Sequence record: MT446422.1
Reading direction: 5' to 3' (one strand)
Source of the DNA: Escherichia virus TH57
Length of the DNA: 64,000 nucleotides
Part shown: positions 661 to 49,591 of the stretch, one piece after another
How positions within the stretch are numbered: position 1 is the stretch's first letter
Layout of the letters: each line of letters opens with the position of its first letter
Program-made: the position numbers and the translations under genes
Notes under the pieces: generated by a model
The model's input: only the letters and a program-made list of their open reading frames with translations
Database searches by the model: none
What the model was told of the DNA's origin: nothing

Positions 661-936
661 ATGATATATAAGATTTGGACGTATATCTCTATTTTTGTTA
701 TTGCTGGAATTGCATTTATCCCCACACAAACAGATAGCGAGAGATATGAAAGGGAAATTGAAATAGTAGCAAGCACGTATCATTCTGTTAATAAAGAATG
801 CCCGAATAAAAATGGAATAAATTTACAAAAAGCACATTATATGCTGACTGTTACTAGTCCGGTGCAAAGAATATGGGTTGATAGCCATTTTTCTGATTTA
901 TTTGCAATATATTGTTTCAAGTTTAAAAGATTATAA
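661..936 (+). CDS. hypothetical small membrane protein (rI.1 position)
   Basis: 91-aa ORF with N-terminal hydrophobic segment, 8 nt after tk stop. Confidence 0.5.
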   Translation: MIYKIWTYISIFVIAGIAFIPTQTDSERYEREIEIVASTYHSVNKECPNKNGINLQKAHYMLTVTSPVQRIWVDSHFSDLFAIYCFKFKRL

Positions 937-1010
937 ATACAGTTACTAACTAGTATTCCGCTATGTTAAGGCTGCAAAGCGTAATCATGACCAACAATAA
1001 GGAGTCCTTT

Positions 1011-1304
1011 ATGGACCTTATTCGAGGACTTTCTCTAAGTCTATTACTAATGGGCTGTTTAGGCCCAAATCTGTCCTCTGCTACAGATGGTAAATTTACA
1101 CAGTATGCAGATAGTGCGATGCAAATCTATTCGCAATTCAAAGAACCTAGCGTCGAGCAGTCCGAACAATTTTGGGCTTTTATTAAAACCGAATGGAACA
1201 ATAAGAGTCAATGTGTAAATGAAATCACATGTCAAATTGATGGCCGTGCTGCTGCAGTCGAATACGCTAAATTAATGAAGGTAAAATTGGAAGATGAAAT
1301 TTGA
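1011..1304 (+). CDS. rI: lysis inhibition regulator rI
   Basis: 97 aa from internal ATG with AAGGAG SD; signal-anchor N-terminus; C-terminal half resembles T4 RI. Confidence 0.75.
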   Translation: MDLIRGLSLSLLLMGCLGPNLSSATDGKFTQYADSAMQIYSQFKEPSVEQSEQFWAFIKTEWNNKSQCVNEITCQIDGRAAAVEYAKLMKVKLEDEI

Positions 1305-34178: not shown

Positions 34179-34472
34179 ATGAAAAAGTTATTAATTGCAG
34201 CAATTCTTACCGTAGCATCATGTGGTACAGCTCCAGTTACTGCTGGGCTTGATAAAGACCTTTGTGAGTGGTCTATGACCGCTGACCAGACTGATGTTGA
34301 ACATCAGATTTATGCTGATATCATGAACATAACTAAACGTGACCGTCCTGATATGGTTAAAGAAGTGTCTGACCAACTGGCTTCTGGTGACGTTATGCAG
34401 TATAACTATGTTCTGTATTGCGATGCTTCATTCGACAACAGCAAAATTGTTCAATGGGTTACAGGTGAATAA
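34179..34472 (+). CDS. sp: spackle-like periplasmic protein Sp
   Basis: 97 aa, signal peptide with lipobox-like VASC; size and position match T4 sp; CEWSMTADQT motif. Confidence 0.6.
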   Translation: MKKLLIAAILTVASCGTAPVTAGLDKDLCEWSMTADQTDVEHQIYADIMNITKRDRPDMVKEVSDQLASGDVMQYNYVLYCDASFDNSKIVQWVTGE

Positions 34473-34473
34473 A

Positions 34474-34911
34474 ATGATTAACAGAAATTTGGTTATCAAA
34501 AAACTTCGCTGTAAAAATCCAAATGCGCAAGCATACAGAGTGTTTTGGAGCGACGAGATTCAATATCTGGGTTATTTTCTTGTTGACAGTGATAATAGAA
34601 TTACGTTTGCTCATAAGCTTCTTAACAAAGAATTAAACCATTGGCAAGAACTTATTGCAGTCAAGTCTAAATTATTTTCATGCAATGCAATGCACCAATT
34701 GGTTTATTTTTTCGCTGATGGTATTCCTGACAAGGTTGAGTTTGAAGGGTTTGAATTTAAAGACATCAATCCAGACAATGAATTGAATAATGATGTTGTT
34801 AATATGGGTATCCCTGGTAAGTACATCAAAAACAGTCTTTTGAAAATTCTGGAAAATCCTGTTTATTCAGTTGACGACCAAATTTTTAATGCCTTTATGA
34901 AGCGAGATTAA
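34474..34911 (+). CDS. hypothetical protein (61.2 position)
   Basis: 145 aa from in-frame ATG after sp stop; C-terminus DDQIFNAFMKRD. Confidence 0.5.
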   Translation: MINRNLVIKKLRCKNPNAQAYRVFWSDEIQYLGYFLVDSDNRITFAHKLLNKELNHWQELIAVKSKLFSCNAMHQLVYFFADGIPDKVEFEGFEFKDINPDNELNNDVVNMGIPGKYIKNSLLKILENPVYSVDDQIFNAFMKRD

Positions 34912-34912
34912 T

Positions 34913-35269
34913 ATGAGTTATTATAATTTTCTGAATTTTGAACTGGCCAGCAATAATGATGGTAATGCTCGTTATGAATTTCGTGAGCCTCGGTTTAATC
35001 AGGCGATTGGTTATATTATCGTTAAAGATGATGTTATCATAAAGGCTCGCTCATTTATGGTAATGGATGGACCTTATGAAGATACTCGTGGATACCCATT
35101 TGATAAAAAGAATGTGCGCGATTGCGCAATCTGGATAACTGGGAACCCTGAAATTGGGGTCATGATATCTACTGAAGCGAATGACATTCTGGAAGGGGTA
35201 GCCAAAGCTCAAGAACCGCCTACTGATATTGATGACCAGATTTTTAATGCCTTCATGAAGCGAGGTTAA
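34913..35269 (+). CDS. hypothetical protein (61.1 position)
   Basis: 118-aa ORF; C-terminus DDQIFNAFMKRG repeats the upstream gene tail. Confidence 0.5.
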   Translation: MSYYNFLNFELASNNDGNARYEFREPRFNQAIGYIIVKDDVIIKARSFMVMDGPYEDTRGYPFDKKNVRDCAIWITGNPEIGVMISTEANDILEGVAKAQEPPTDIDDQIFNAFMKRG

Positions 35270-35270
35270 T

Positions 35271-35492
35271 ATGTTTGTTTTGACCCAATTCTCTAAAGCA
35301 ATATATAGTTACTCTTGCCAGTGGGAAGTCTTTATTGATACTCCTTCGCCTAAGTATGGTGTTTTTGGACGAGTAACTACTCAAGCTTATGTTGCACGAC
35401 CGACTAAACGTCAGATTCGTAAACTTAAAAAGGCACATCGTCAATTGATTAAAAGAAGGGAACAATATGAGTGCAATGTGTACGGGCTCTAA
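35271..35492 (+). CDS. hypothetical basic protein
   Basis: 73-aa ORF. Confidence 0.45.
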   Translation: MFVLTQFSKAIYSYSCQWEVFIDTPSPKYGVFGRVTTQAYVARPTKRQIRKLKKAHRQLIKRREQYECNVYGL

Positions 35493-35658
35493 GATTTCGG
35501 TCTTCCAGATTTTTGAAGAATATGAAATCGTGTCGCAAGACCAAGAAGCAATCCATGTTATCGCTGATGATGGTGTTACCTGGATTATTCCGTTGTATCA
35601 TGAAGACACTTATGAAGTGACTGATGCAAATGGTGATAAAGCTATCTTCGTTGTATAA
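35467..35658 (+). CDS. hypothetical protein
   Basis: 63-aa ORF. Confidence 0.45.
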   Translation: MSAMCTGSKISVFQIFEEYEIVSQDQEAIHVIADDGVTWIIPLYHEDTYEVTDANGDKAIFVV

Positions 35659-35661
35659 ATA
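35654..35661 (+). promoter_or_regulatory. late promoter TATAAATA
   Basis: exact TATAAATA 17 nt upstream of the 35678 ATG. Confidence 0.5.
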
Positions 35662-35677
35662 GCGGAAAGGGGGTGTT

Positions 35678-35845
35678 ATGAAAACATTCAAAGATTTTAT
35701 AAACGAAGATATGGTTGCCGGTGATGCAGGTGGAAACCCAACTAATATCGCAACAGGTACCACTTCCGGGGCAGTTGTCAATAAAGGCCCTGAACAAATC
35801 CCATCAAAAAAGCGTAAGAACAAAGACGATAAACCTACAGTATAA
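35678..35845 (+). CDS. hypothetical small protein, possibly late-expressed
   Basis: 55 aa, AAAGGGGG SD, K/R-rich tail, followed by GGTCCC-CC-GGGACC hairpin; not in track. Confidence 0.4.
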   Translation: MKTFKDFINEDMVAGDAGGNPTNIATGTTSGAVVNKGPEQIPSKKRKNKDDKPTV

Positions 35846-35877
35846 TGGTCCCCCGGGACCATTGAAATGAGGAAACT

Positions 35878-36906
35878 ATGTCATATATTGATAAAGAATT
35901 TGCGGTCAGAGCTTTATCGTATCAACCACGTTATAGAGAAGTCACCGGGAGCACATTTAAAGCAAACTGTCGTTGTAAGGTTTGCGGGGACTCCCAGAAA
36001 GATTCACATAAGGCTCGATTCTGGGCGTATACCAATCCGTCTGATGGTGCGGTTTACGTGAAATGTTTTAACTGTGACTACTCCACGCATATAAGCAAAT
36101 ACATAAAAGAGTTTGAGCCGGATTTGCACCGGGAATATATGGTTGAGAAGTACAAGGAAAATGCCTTCGGTCGACAACGTAATGAAGTTGCAGAAACTCC
36201 GAAAGAACCAGAAAAAACTCCGGTTATTGAAGAGCTTGCTTTTTGCGAAAGAATCGATACTTTACCAGAAGCACATCCGATAGTTAAGTATGTGAAAAGT
36301 CGGTGTATTCCGAGCAATGTTTGGAACCGGTTATGGTTTACAAACAAATGGCCTGCATTAGTTAACTCCGTTAATCCTGGGACGTATAAGAATGAAACGA
36401 ATGAACCACGCTTGGTTATTCCTATCTTCAACGGCAAAAAAGAAATCGAATCTTTCCAAGGACGAGCTCTTCGCAAAGATGCACCACAAAAATATATCAC
36501 AATCAAAGCTCACCCAGAAGCTTCCAAAGTCTATGGCGTAGACAAGATTGATGAGCGCAAGCGCGTGTGGGTAATGGAAGGTCCGATTGATAGTTTGTTT
36601 ATCCCTAACAGCATTGCGATAACCGGTGGAACATTAGCATTGGAAGCCGTTCCTTATGCTGAAACCCGAGTATGGGTAATGGACAACGAGCCAAGACATC
36701 CGGATACGATTAAACGTATGAAGAAACTCGTTGAAGCTGGCGAAGCTGTTATGTTCTGGGACAATGCACCATGGCATACGAAAGACATAAATGAGATGGT
36801 TAAATCGGAGGGTGCAACCCCTGAACAAATCGAATCATATATGGCCGATAACGTTGCTCAAGGGCTGATGGCGAGAATGCGACTTTCGAAGTACGCAAAA
36901 GTTTAG
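35878..36906 (+). CDS. 61: DNA primase gp61
   Basis: 342 aa; N-terminal zinc ribbon CRCKVCGDS...CFNC; same length as T4 gp61. Confidence 0.9.
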   Translation: MSYIDKEFAVRALSYQPRYREVTGSTFKANCRCKVCGDSQKDSHKARFWAYTNPSDGAVYVKCFNCDYSTHISKYIKEFEPDLHREYMVEKYKENAFGRQRNEVAETPKEPEKTPVIEELAFCERIDTLPEAHPIVKYVKSRCIPSNVWNRLWFTNKWPALVNSVNPGTYKNETNEPRLVIPIFNGKKEIESFQGRALRKDAPQKYITIKAHPEASKVYGVDKIDERKRVWVMEGPIDSLFIPNSIAITGGTLALEAVPYAETRVWVMDNEPRHPDTIKRMKKLVEAGEAVMFWDNAPWHTKDINEMVKSEGATPEQIESYMADNVAQGLMARMRLSKYAKV

Positions 36907-37014: not shown

Positions 37015-37212
37015 CTATATAAGGCCGATTAATGCCAGTGAAACATCTACAACTGATTCGAGTGCGATGACTGGCAATATAACGCCATGTGCCAATGCAA
37101 CAGGGGCAACAATGAAATTCCAGAGTAGAACTAAACAGAGTATCGAAAGGACTAGAATCGTTCGCTTACGACTGCCTTTGATGGCTTGAATTAGACTAGA
37201 TAGTTTTAGCAT
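37015..37212 (-). CDS. hypothetical small membrane protein on opposite strand
   Basis: 65 aa from ATG with AAAGGAGG SD; two hydrophobic segments; only minus-strand ORF with a strong RBS inside the early block. Confidence 0.5.
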   Translation of the reverse strand: MLKLSSLIQAIKGSRKRTILVLSILCLVLLWNFIVAPVALAHGVILPVIALESVVDVSLALIGLI

Positions 37213-37296
37213 ATATCCTCCTTTCTTGTATTTATGCTTCAAACCAATATGATATAATTAACATACAAACAACATGAATTGATAAGGAAAAATATA

Positions 37297-47750: not shown

Positions 47751-49583
47751 ATGATGATTAATAATGAAATTAAAGTACTCTCGGACGTCGAGCATATCAA
47801 AAAACGTTCCGGGATGTATATTGGTTCCAGTTCAAATGAAGCGCATGAGCGATTCTTGTTTGGTGAATATAAGTCCGTAAGCTATGTTCCTGGTATTGTA
47901 AAACTGATTGATGAAATTATTGATAACTCTGTTGATGAAGCAATTCGCACCAGTTTTAAATTTGCCAATAAAATTGATGTCCAAATTAAAGATAATCAGA
48001 TTTCGGTTTCTGATAATGGCCGTGGTATTCCACAGGCAATGGTTACAGACCAAAACGGTGAACAAATCCCTGGCCCTGTTGCAGCATGGACTATTCCAAA
48101 AGCAGGTGGCAACTTCGGCGATGATGCTGAACGTAAAACTGGCGGGATGAATGGCGTCGGGTCTTCTCTGACCAATATTTTCTCCGTATTGTTCACCGGG
48201 ATTACCGCTGATGGGGCGAACGAAATTACTGTTAACTGCTCCAACGGTATGGAAAACAAATGTTGGTCGACTAAGAAATCAAAGGGTAAAGGTACGACTG
48301 TTATATTTATTCCAGATTTTAGTCACTTTGAAGAAAATAGTCTGTCCCAGATTTATCTGGATATTACATTGGACCGTCTGCAGACTCTTGCTGTTGTTTA
48401 TCCGGATATTCAGTTCACCTTTAATGGTAAAAAGGTTGATGGCAACTTCAAGAAGTTCTCCAAGCAATTCGGAACCGAAGTTGTTATTCAGGAAACTGAT
48501 ACAGTATCGATGGCCTTTACGACCAGCCCAGACGGTTTCCGTCAGTTGACTTATGTCAACAACATTCATACAAAGAATGGCGGACACCACGTTGAATGTG
48601 TTATGGATGATATCTGTGAACACCTTCAGCCGGCGATTAAGCGCAAATATAAAGGCATTGAGGTGACCAAGGCACGAGTTAAAGAATGTCTCACCATGCT
48701 TATGTTCATCCGCGATATGAGCAACATGCGATTTGATTCCCAAACCAAGGAGCGATTGACTTCTCCGGCTGGTGAAATCCGAAATCACATTAAGATTGAT
48801 GCTAAGAAAATCGCGCAAGCTATTCTGAAAAATGAACCGCTGATTATGCCGATTGTTGAAGCTGCATTAGCCCGTAAATTGGCTGCAGAGAAAGCAGCAG
48901 AGACTAAGGCAAATAAGAAAGCTTCAAAGGCCAAGGTACAAAAGCATATCAAGGCCAACGAATGGGGCAATGATAAGTTGGAAACGACTCTATTCCTGAC
49001 CGAAGGGGATTCTGCAACTGGCCCATTTATCAAGGTTCGCGACCGTGAATTGCAGGGTGCTTATCCATTACGGGGCAAGTTTAAAAACACATGGGGCCTG
49101 AAAGCTATTGACGTTATGAAGAACGCTGAAGCCTTTGATGTGTGTGCAATTACTGGATTAACGATTGGACAACCGGCCGAGAATATGAATTACCGAAACA
49201 TTGCTATCATGACAGATGCGGATGTGGATGGTGTCGGTAGTATCTATCCATCGTTATTGGCGTTTTTCAGTAACTGGCCAGAGCTGTTCCATGAAGGACG
49301 AATTCGCTTTGTGAAAACTCCTGTTATTATTGCGCAGCTCAAAGATAAACAAGAATGGTTCTATTCTCTTCCTGACTATGAAGAAGCTAAGGATAAACTT
49401 CCGAAGCACACCATCCGATACATCAAGGGACTTGGTTCTCTGGAAGATGCCGAGTACAAACGCGTATTGCTCGAACCGGTATTCGAAGTTGTTCAATTGC
49501 CTGACAACTGGAAAGAACTGTTTGAAATGTTATTCGGTAAAGATTCCCAGCAGCGCAAAGATTGGATGAATGCGACGCTATAA
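47751..49583 (+). CDS. 39: DNA topoisomerase II large subunit gp39 (ATPase), unsplit
   Basis: 610 aa continuous ORF covering the region that T4 splits into genes 39 and 60. Confidence 0.92.
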   Translation: MMINNEIKVLSDVEHIKKRSGMYIGSSSNEAHERFLFGEYKSVSYVPGIVKLIDEIIDNSVDEAIRTSFKFANKIDVQIKDNQISVSDNGRGIPQAMVTDQNGEQIPGPVAAWTIPKAGGNFGDDAERKTGGMNGVGSSLTNIFSVLFTGITADGANEITVNCSNGMENKCWSTKKSKGKGTTVIFIPDFSHFEENSLSQIYLDITLDRLQTLAVVYPDIQFTFNGKKVDGNFKKFSKQFGTEVVIQETDTVSMAFTTSPDGFRQLTYVNNIHTKNGGHHVECVMDDICEHLQPAIKRKYKGIEVTKARVKECLTMLMFIRDMSNMRFDSQTKERLTSPAGEIRNHIKIDAKKIAQAILKNEPLIMPIVEAALARKLAAEKAAETKANKKASKAKVQKHIKANEWGNDKLETTLFLTEGDSATGPFIKVRDRELQGAYPLRGKFKNTWGLKAIDVMKNAEAFDVCAITGLTIGQPAENMNYRNIAIMTDADVDGVGSIYPSLLAFFSNWPELFHEGRIRFVKTPVIIAQLKDKQEWFYSLPDYEEAKDKLPKHTIRYIKGLGSLEDAEYKRVLLEPVFEVVQLPDNWKELFEMLFGKDSQQRKDWMNATL

Positions 49584-49586
49584 ATA
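49579..49586 (+). promoter_or_regulatory. late promoter TATAAATA overlapping the gene 39 stop
   Basis: exact TATAAATA. Confidence 0.45.
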
Positions 49587-49591
49587 GATGT

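Follow-up and report, generated by a model that had tools for sequence, protein, structure and literature searches.

Directly 5' of its DNA primase gene 61, phage T4 carries gene 61.1, whose 54-residue product (AAD42508) goes under the name 'hypothetical protein' and which was listed by Nolan et al. 2006 as a conserved open reading frame (ORF) of unknown function. The present work deals with the counterpart of this gene in Escherichia virus TH57, which lies in a stretch of 64,000 nucleotides (sequence record MT446422.1, hereafter called the window), and with the signals that flank it. The gene was compared with T4 61.1, with the major capsid protein gp23, with the T4-type internal proteins and with the decoration protein Soc. 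Judging from these sequence comparisons, we propose that gp61.1 is a substrate of the gp21 protease that is targeted to the prohead, a reading to which we assign a probability of about one half.

Maturation of T4 gp23 removes its first 65 residues. Residues 66-105 are disordered in the unexpanded head, where they lie inside and face the scaffold; after expansion they are externalised as the N-fist and N-arm and form part of the Soc site. Head length is altered by the gp23 substitutions A66D, A94V and G97S. The internal proteins of T4 start with a capsid targeting sequence (CTS), MKTYQEFIAE, which takes them into the scaffolding core of the prohead and is known to suffice for such targeting. 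Within it, targeting depends on residues 4 and 7 and processing on residues 8 and 10. The gp21 protease cleaves C-terminal to Glu, and its cleavage consensus is (L/I)-x-E with the cut after the Glu.

The region of interest is 96-99% identical to the corresponding region of the Gaprivervirus phages VR7, VR20, VR25 and SP18, which are relatives of T4. The first-pass annotation of the window had proposed comparing its 55-residue ORF with the 61.x ORFs of T4-like genomes; the ORF is the known gene 61.1, which had gone unrecognised. Its product is 100% identical to VR7 gp61.1 (annotated as '61.1, gp61.1 conserved hypothetical protein' and encoded between VR7ORF036c and the primase gene '58=61'), shares 72% identity with T4 gp61.1 and matches phrog_1823 (E 1e-32, residues 1-52). 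The T4 protein has the same core (MKTFKEFIKE/DMVAGDSGGNPENISIGTTSGAVVNKGPEQIP) and its gene the same place. The gene and the parts of its product discussed below are the following:

35678..35845, plus strand: gene 61.1, ATG at 35678, stop codon at 35843-35845, 55 residues, MKTFKDFINEDMVAGDAGGNPTNIATGTTSGAVVNKGPEQIPSKKRKNKDDKPTV.
35678..35707, plus strand: codons 1-10, leader MKTFKDFINE, CTS-like, ending in I-x-E, with a predicted gp21 cut after Glu10.
35708..35803, plus strand: codons 11-42, core DMVAGDAGGNPTNIATGTTSGAVVNKGPEQIP, homologous to the N-terminus (N-fist/N-arm) of the mature capsid protein gp23*.
35804..35842, plus strand: codons 43-55, charged tail SKKRKNKDDKPTV, in which only a KK(R/K)K cluster is conserved.

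One clue to the role of gp61.1 came from gp23. Residues 2-46 of gp61.1 could be aligned without gaps to residues 55-99 of VR7 gp23, with 19 identities in 45 positions (42%; BLASTP E 1e-9), and comparison of the two profiles with hhalign gave a probability of 97.4% (E 1.3e-11). When a phage collection was searched with tblastn, the matches were the 61.1 locus itself and the gp23 N-termini of distant T4 relatives (E 1e-5 to 8e-4), among them KVP20, Proteus Pm5461, Aeromonas 50AhydR13PP and Citrobacter KKP_3664. In the alignment the Glu10/Asp11 bond of gp61.1 falls exactly on the maturation site of gp23 (Glu/Ala), and residue 11 of gp61.1 is matched to the position at which the mature KVP20 capsid protein is annotated to begin. 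The most conserved residues of gp61.1 are those that it has in common with gp23, plus the Glu at the cleavage position. The similarity is confined to these 45 residues; gp61.1 has no HK97-fold body (A, P and I domains, E-loop) and therefore cannot be a subunit of the shell, and the names 'major capsid protein' and 'major capsid domain-containing protein', under which members of the 61.1 family are found in databases, are misleading. In the Pectobacterium-phage-like locus L029 (2001-2171) the 61.1 core, GDGGYDADNIASGTTSGAIVDLGP, resembles gp23 (GDHGYDATNIAAGQTSGAVTQIGP) more closely than the other 61.1 sequences do, which hints either that ancestral states have been preserved or that gene conversion has taken place between 61.1 and gene 23.

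The leader has a second set of relatives. Its first ten residues match those of the T4-type internal proteins (IPI, IPII, IPIII and the Ip6/7/9/10 set), seven of the ten positions being identical both to VR7 Ip6 and to the T4 CTS, and the positions that matter for targeting and processing are occupied by F4, F7, I8 and E10. All eight genes of the two internal-protein clusters of VR7 begin with a version of the CTS, for example MKTYQEFI[TN]E or MKTFNELFNE. A scan with the CTS pattern of all ATG-started ORFs in the window and in the 50-150 kb part of VR7 (about 164 kb in total, 2,173 candidates) matched only these eight cluster genes and 61.1. The site I8-N9-E10/D11 conforms to the gp21 motif, and E10 is invariant in the short forms of the family described below. 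At the same time, the leader is colinear with residues 55-63 of gp23 (F4/F57, F7/F60, I8/L61, E10/E63), and the CTS may thus be a general docking-and-cleavage motif common to gp23, the internal proteins and 61.1.

An origin of the leader by copying from an internal-protein gene was considered and rejected, because the first 30 nucleotides differ at many synonymous positions; colinearity with gp23 also counts against it. From the sequences compared, common descent of the whole leader-core segment appears at least as likely as copying of the leader.

Beyond the leader, gp61.1 differs from the internal proteins. The latter are folded, 8-20 kDa in size, highly variable between phages and encoded in hypervariable clusters, whereas 61.1 has a fixed locus and a mature part of 45 residues that is conserved, predicted to be disordered and homologous to gp23. 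AlphaFold assigned no autonomous fold to the 55-residue protein (pLDDT 60, pTM 0.15), a property that recalls the gp23 N-arm, which is disordered before expansion of the head, and a fold search of BFVD returned only family members and noise. Given these differences, gp61.1 does not count as a typical internal protein. As to its tail, which the first-pass annotation had singled out as K/R-rich, the basic residues are there, with conservation of K44 and K45, but in T4 the tail mixes K and E, and from the family alignment a basic tail is not a conserved feature of the family.

There is no reasonable doubt that 61.1 is a real gene. When a core of 31 codons was compared with ten diverged relatives, pN/pS ranged from 0.05 to 0.34 with pS near saturation (0.5-0.9), indicating purifying selection, and relatives of gp61.1 occur in more than 1,400 phage records. 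The gene lies directly 5' of the primase gene and on the same strand in this phage and at every locus examined. An ORF of 137 codons on the minus strand (35449..35862) overlaps it and was rejected as a gene, since the pattern of substitutions fits the plus-strand frame. Neither the short nor the long forms of 61.1 gave matches in Pfam or NCBIfam; in PHROGs they fall into families of unknown function only, and Rfam had no match within 35300-36100.

The family comprises two forms. The short form (50-70 residues) is present in T4, VR7, JS98 and CC31-type phages; the long form (154-166 residues, phrog_2086) is present in RB69, S16, Yersinia TG1, Acj9, GAP161 and KVP40-type phages. An exhaustive profile search of 1.84 billion representative sequences yielded 52 clusters at 50% identity, all with members of 251 residues or fewer. 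The long form shares with the protein of this phage the C-terminal module (x-E/MVAGD...NIASGTTxGA..NKGP..KRKR), and its gene shares the location upstream of primase, an upstream element containing TAAATA and a hairpin; it differs in having a conserved helical N-terminal domain of about 105 residues instead of the ten-residue CTS-like leader. In the AlphaFold model of the long form this helical domain was the only part predicted, with moderate confidence. The sequences inspected were 29 of the long form, the representatives of 34 of the 52 clusters and 13 sequence types drawn from 42 loci. Every one of them has a Glu located 0-2 residues before the [MV]x[AGS]GD core, and this Glu is usually preceded, at a distance of two positions, by a hydrophobic residue. 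Since leader and N-terminal domain have been exchanged while the 45 residues downstream stayed strongly constrained, the arrangement would be explained most simply if the N-terminal part were a removable targeting piece and the gp23-like peptide the functional product.

Two observations on family members deserve mention. In RB69 (NC_004928, L050, 2818-3284, minus strand) the long-form gene is split by a frameshift into ORF032c (63 residues) and '61.1' (92 residues), and an intact counterpart of 155 residues is present in the related contigs L024 and L025; the split is either a sequencing error or a real case of pseudogenisation. Three metagenomic 61.1-like proteins (P0035, P0055 and P0058) have an extra C-terminal domain of about 100 residues, which begins with a second CTS-like motif (M..FKQFVE). 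They look as if they had arisen by fusion with, or from adjacency to, a CTS-bearing gene, which would link the family to prohead-targeted proteins.

The signals upstream of the gene bear on the time of its expression. The first-pass annotation had described an exact late-promoter motif, the ORF with its Shine-Dalgarno sequence and a hairpin before gene 61, and all of these were found at the positions it gave. The elements on the upstream side are:

35467..35658, plus strand: upstream ORF of 63 residues, similar to VR7ORF036c and RB69 ORF033c (phrog_3249, E 2.5e-33), with a TAA stop codon at 35656-35658.
35654-35661, plus strand: TATAAATA, candidate late promoter element (T4-type, gp55-dependent -10 region), an exact 8-mer 16 nt before the ATG of 61.1.
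35667, plus strand: predicted late transcription start, 6 nt 3' of the motif.
35666-35675, plus strand: Shine-Dalgarno sequence of 61.1, AAAGGGGGTG, a 9/10 match read from the sequence.

Late promoters of the T4 type depend on gp55, gp33 and gp45. The T4 late promoter is defined by a motif at -13 to -6 relative to the start site and requires no -35 element (PMC1524935); position -13 is variable in T4 relatives. Applying this rule, we infer a start at about 35667, which would give an 11-nt leader holding the entire ribosome-binding site. The first five bases of the motif are provided by the last codons and the TAA stop of the upstream ORF. By number the motif is not enriched, the window having 5 copies where 4.9 are expected. 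By position it stands out: of the five sites, four precede an ORF start on their own strand by 16-31 nt, and two of these belong to classical late genes, namely soc (site 38099, ATG 38138, gap of 31 nt) and holin t (site 63021, minus strand, gap of 18 nt). In 100 kb of VR7, 13 of 25 occurrences sit 9-31 nt before the annotated start of a late gene (gaps of 17 nt for gp26, 18 for gp13, 24 for gp51, 25 for gp24 and alt, 29 for gp22 and gp18, and 9 for Ip9), so the 16-nt gap at 61.1 fits the spacing of late promoters. In front of VR7 Ip9 the motif also overlaps the stop codon of the upstream gene, as it does at 61.1.

The suggestion that 61.1 resembles soc was well founded with respect to the gene, because soc in the same window is also a small early-strand gene with its own TATAAATA in the same arrangement. 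It does not extend to the product. Soc, a folded decoration protein, attaches to the outside of the capsid once this has expanded; it lacks both a CTS and a gp21 site, and its sequence is unrelated to that of gp61.1.

Two further TATAAATA sites of the window overlap stop codons. The one at 932-939 overlaps the stop of ORF 661..936 and is 23 nt before ORF 963..1304, which codes for 113 residues with a signal- or lipobox-like N-terminus (LLLMGCLG) and is, from this arrangement, a second candidate for a late gene on the early strand. The one at 49579-49586 overlaps the stop of the gp39 topoisomerase ORF (47751..49583) and is separated by just 1 nt from the next ATG, at 49588; should it be active, its target would be something farther downstream than the ORF starting there.

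Signals were also compared across 42 related loci from IMG/VR together with T4, RB69 and JS98. An exact TATAAATA precedes 61.1 in five groups that are distinct in sequence (the VR7 group, the VR5/JS98 group, L020/L023, L031/L040 and the long-form L044), the distance from the start of the motif to the ATG being 21-35 nt. At least three unrelated genes are found upstream of 61.1 in these groups, and the overlap with the stop codon is solved identically each time (xTA TAA ATA). Three further groups carry GATAAATA, CATAAATA or AATAAATA, i.e. A, G or C followed by ATAAATA. Most other groups have TTAAATA, to which, to our knowledge, no late-promoter status has been ascribed. In phages of the T4 (Tequatrovirus) type the motif is missing: 61.1 abuts 61.2, and only TATGAATA is present there. 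Between gene 41 and soc of T4 no late promoter able to drive 61.1 was found, the nearest TATAAATA on the same strand being that of soc.

These comparisons suggest that TATAAATA at 35654-35661 is probably an active late promoter in this phage. The gene lies within an early/middle transcription unit of the same strand, in the cluster of replication genes, and because of this location expression restricted to late times is unlikely; expression both early and late is the better expectation. The earlier description of 61.1 as a late gene on the early strand is thus favoured by a spacing typical of late genes and by retention of the motif in diverged lineages, but does not hold for the T4 orthologue, which lacks the promoter and is classed as early.

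On the downstream side the following features separate 61.1 from primase or belong to it:

35843-35864, plus strand: hairpin, its 9-bp stem formed by 35843-35851 and 35856-35864 and closed by a 4-nt loop, CCCG, predicted at -12.7 kcal/mol and including the stop codon of 61.1.
35841-35848, plus strand: TATAATGG, an 8-mer that straddles the stop codon of 61.1 and the 5' arm of the hairpin.
35878..36906, plus strand: gene 61, DNA primase (phrog_47, E 1e-94), the downstream neighbour, with the Shine-Dalgarno sequence GAGGA at 35869-35873.

The hairpin is where it had first been noticed, but not in the form then drawn: GGTCCC-CC-GGGACC, with 6 bp and a 2-nt loop, cannot close, and the predicted fold is the 9-bp stem given above. 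Sixteen loci have a stem-loop after the 61.1 stop codon; among them are at least eight distinct stem sequences, and the free energies are -11 to -18 kcal/mol, with z-scores of -3 to -7. When the 16 loci were aligned, 92.7% of the cells were paired, as compared with 18-62% in controls with a slid register. There were 15 cells with double changes versus 6.2 ± 2.0 in shuffled alignments, and none of 500 shuffles reached the observed value. In five loci (L017, L020, L039, L046 and L047) the stem is followed by a run of T and has the form of a textbook intrinsic terminator, at which a late transcript would end upstream of gene 61. No hairpin is present in T4-type phages, L031 and L044; in T4 this follows from the fact that the stop codon of 61.1 is only 2 nt away from the ATG of gene 61. 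The sequences thus point to 61.1 as an autonomous promoter-gene-terminator unit within the early-strand cluster in many genera.

Downstream of the stem in this phage the window reads ...GGGACCATTGAAATGAGG; the T-run is absent, and a terminator scan made no call. The JS98 hairpin likewise has no T-run. The hairpin of this phage occupies the same position as the intrinsic terminators found 3' of 61.1 elsewhere and appears to be derived from a terminator. The terminator part of the unit is thus degenerate here, and read-through into gene 61 is likely.

The 8-mer TATAATGG is kept as a primary sequence across genera although the reading frame of the stop codon shifts. It occurs at the same place in nine other loci (L009, L017, L020, L028, L029, L037, L039, L041 and L047) and is mildly over-represented in the window (7 copies, 6 of them on the plus strand, with 3.0 expected). 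Where the stop codon is TGA the region reads TGnTATAAT, an extended -10 element. A transcript starting from it would begin within the hairpin and so escape it, and could make TATAATGG a promoter of gene 61 nested in the terminator of 61.1. For the window itself we do not claim TATAAT at 35841-35846 as a promoter between 61.1 and 61, since it is accompanied there by neither a usable -35 element nor a TG extension nor a MotA box.

In the mechanism that we envisage, TATAAATA would direct the late synthesis of gp61.1, and read-through from promoters farther upstream would provide the protein early as well. It would enter the core of the assembling prohead by means of its leader and its gp23-like, scaffold-facing segment. 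Cleavage by gp21 after Glu10, at the position equivalent to the maturation cut of gp23, would release a peptide of 45 residues that starts with DMVAGD and mimics the N-terminus of gp23*. The peptide might then stay in the head, leave it together with the fragments of the scaffold, or compete with gp23 for sites on scaffold, protease or shell. The proposal in the first-pass annotation of a virion-associated or late-acting protein gains from the CTS-like N-terminus and from the homology to the maturation site and N-arm of gp23; the class listed for the protein in the T4 proteome, none, speaks against it. A more specific version, in which the 45-residue product is an N-arm/N-fist module acting in trans and occupying the sites of the gp23 N-terminus on scaffold, protease or shell, must be regarded as doubtful. 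If it were true, the peptide could tune the determination of head length, the timing of maturation or sites near the vertices that have no gp23 neighbour, and 61.1 would be a near-universal, so far unrecognised component of T4-like head assembly encoded in the replication cluster.

Several observations weigh against a role of gp61.1 in the prohead or against its late expression. T4 61.1 differs from the gene of this phage in having no TATAAATA, no hairpin and a mixed K/E tail; its transcript was classed as early, and the class of its protein was listed as none in a whole-cell proteome study of T4. Literature searches for statements on the function, transcript mapping or virion proteomics of 61.1 returned gene tables only. 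For near-atomic maps of the T4 head no unassigned density is reported on the outer surface, and the only extra density mentioned is that of short helices under gp24*. The CTS-like leader is missing from the short form of L031, L035 and L040 (MTLLEKYKQSLSE) and from all long forms, leaving x-E as the only universal motif of the family. The TAA within the promoter motif also terminates the reading frame upstream, which may account for part of the conservation of the motif. The hairpin of this phage, taken alone, is unremarkable (z = -1.3 versus dinucleotide shuffles) and has no T-run. Most internal-protein genes of VR7 are preceded by sigma-70-like promoters and not by late ones; early expression is therefore compatible with a head protein, but the label 'late gene' is weakened. 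Finally, the conserved place 5' of primase, out to KVP40-type phages, could point to a role in replication.

The alternative that this last point suggests is that gp61.1 is an accessory of replication linked to primase, for instance a modulator of gp61/gp41, which acts mainly at early and middle times, and that its likeness to gp23 is the relic of an old partial duplication and plays no part in the assembly of the head. Adjacency of 61.1 and 61 at every locus from the T-even to the KVP40-type phages agrees with it, as does the early class of T4 61.1, which has no late promoter. Adjacency is, however, weak evidence because gene order is conserved across the whole region anyway. In addition, a hairpin or terminator stands between 61.1 and 61 in most genera, the late-promoter motif recurs upstream of 61.1, and the residues shared with gp23 together with the cleavage Glu are the most conserved ones, whereas a relic would not hold a pN/pS of 0.05-0.3. 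We consider this explanation unlikely.

A little less probable still is the idea that the flanking signals are there for primase, TATAAATA and the hairpin serving mainly to produce late transcripts of gene 61 and to attenuate or stabilise them, with 61.1 merely lying between the two. With no T-run behind the hairpin of this phage, a late transcript would probably read into gene 61, for which no convincing sigma-70 or MotA promoter was found between 61.1 and 61. The full terminators of L017, L020, L039, L046 and L047, in contrast, would stop such a transcript before it reached gene 61, expression of T4 primase needs neither element, and the CTS-like and gp23-like features of the protein would be left unexplained.

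It is improbable that gp61.1 is a decoy of the gp23 N-terminus, which is not itself part of the head and diverts a host protease or a sensor of abortive infection. As a free copy of a gp23 segment, predicted to be disordered, the protein has suitable properties, and expression at early as well as late times would fit a protective function. Some host defences do respond to capsid proteins; Lit, for example, senses the Gol region of gp23. That region, however, which we take to start at about residue 93 of gp23, is almost wholly outside the 55-99 segment aligned with 61.1, and we know of no sensor of this segment; moreover, a decoy would need neither the conserved hydrophobic-x-E motif nor a CTS-like leader. 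Finally, a motif count equal to chance expectation, a hairpin with a z-score of only -1.3 by itself and the lack of matches in Pfam, NCBIfam and Rfam might suggest a functionless small ORF between a fortuitous stop-codon TATAAATA and an ordinary GC hairpin, but strong purifying selection, a family that extends to over 1,400 phage records and, at 50% identity, to 52 clusters, retention of the motif behind different upstream genes and covariation in the hairpin make this explanation hardly credible.

Some neighbouring genes of the window were also inspected. ORFs 34339..34911 and 34913..35269 adjoin each other and both end with ...DDQIFNAFMKR(D/G), a C-terminal motif shared by T4 gp61.2 (...DDQIFNAFMNRG); their sequences suggest that they are tandem paralogues with a conserved C-terminal tag. 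On the other side, between primase gene 61 and the dCTPase gene 56, a membrane-like ORF of 75 residues (37015..37242, minus strand; phrog_2024, similar to VR7ORF033w and RB69ORF029w) occupies the place where T4 has dam.

Gene 61.1 belongs to the small set of ORFs that essentially all T4-related phages have conserved and to which no function has yet been assigned. As kinds of element, gene 61.1, late promoters, terminators and the CTS are already known. The joint presence in 61.1 of a CTS-like leader, of a gp21 site and of a segment copied from the maturation site and N-arm of gp23 appears to be undescribed; annotation pipelines have registered the resemblance to gp23 only by giving the protein a wrong name. 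If the proposed reading is wrong, 61.1 is a small conserved ORF of an ordinary kind, preceded by a plausible late promoter. As it stands, a 'hypothetical protein next to primase' is replaced, by sequence inference alone, with a specific hypothesis that can be tested cheaply. If it is true, T4-type head assembly would gain a conserved component, the CTS would become a docking-and-cleavage motif shared by several head proteins, and many database entries that name these small proteins 'major capsid protein' would need correction.

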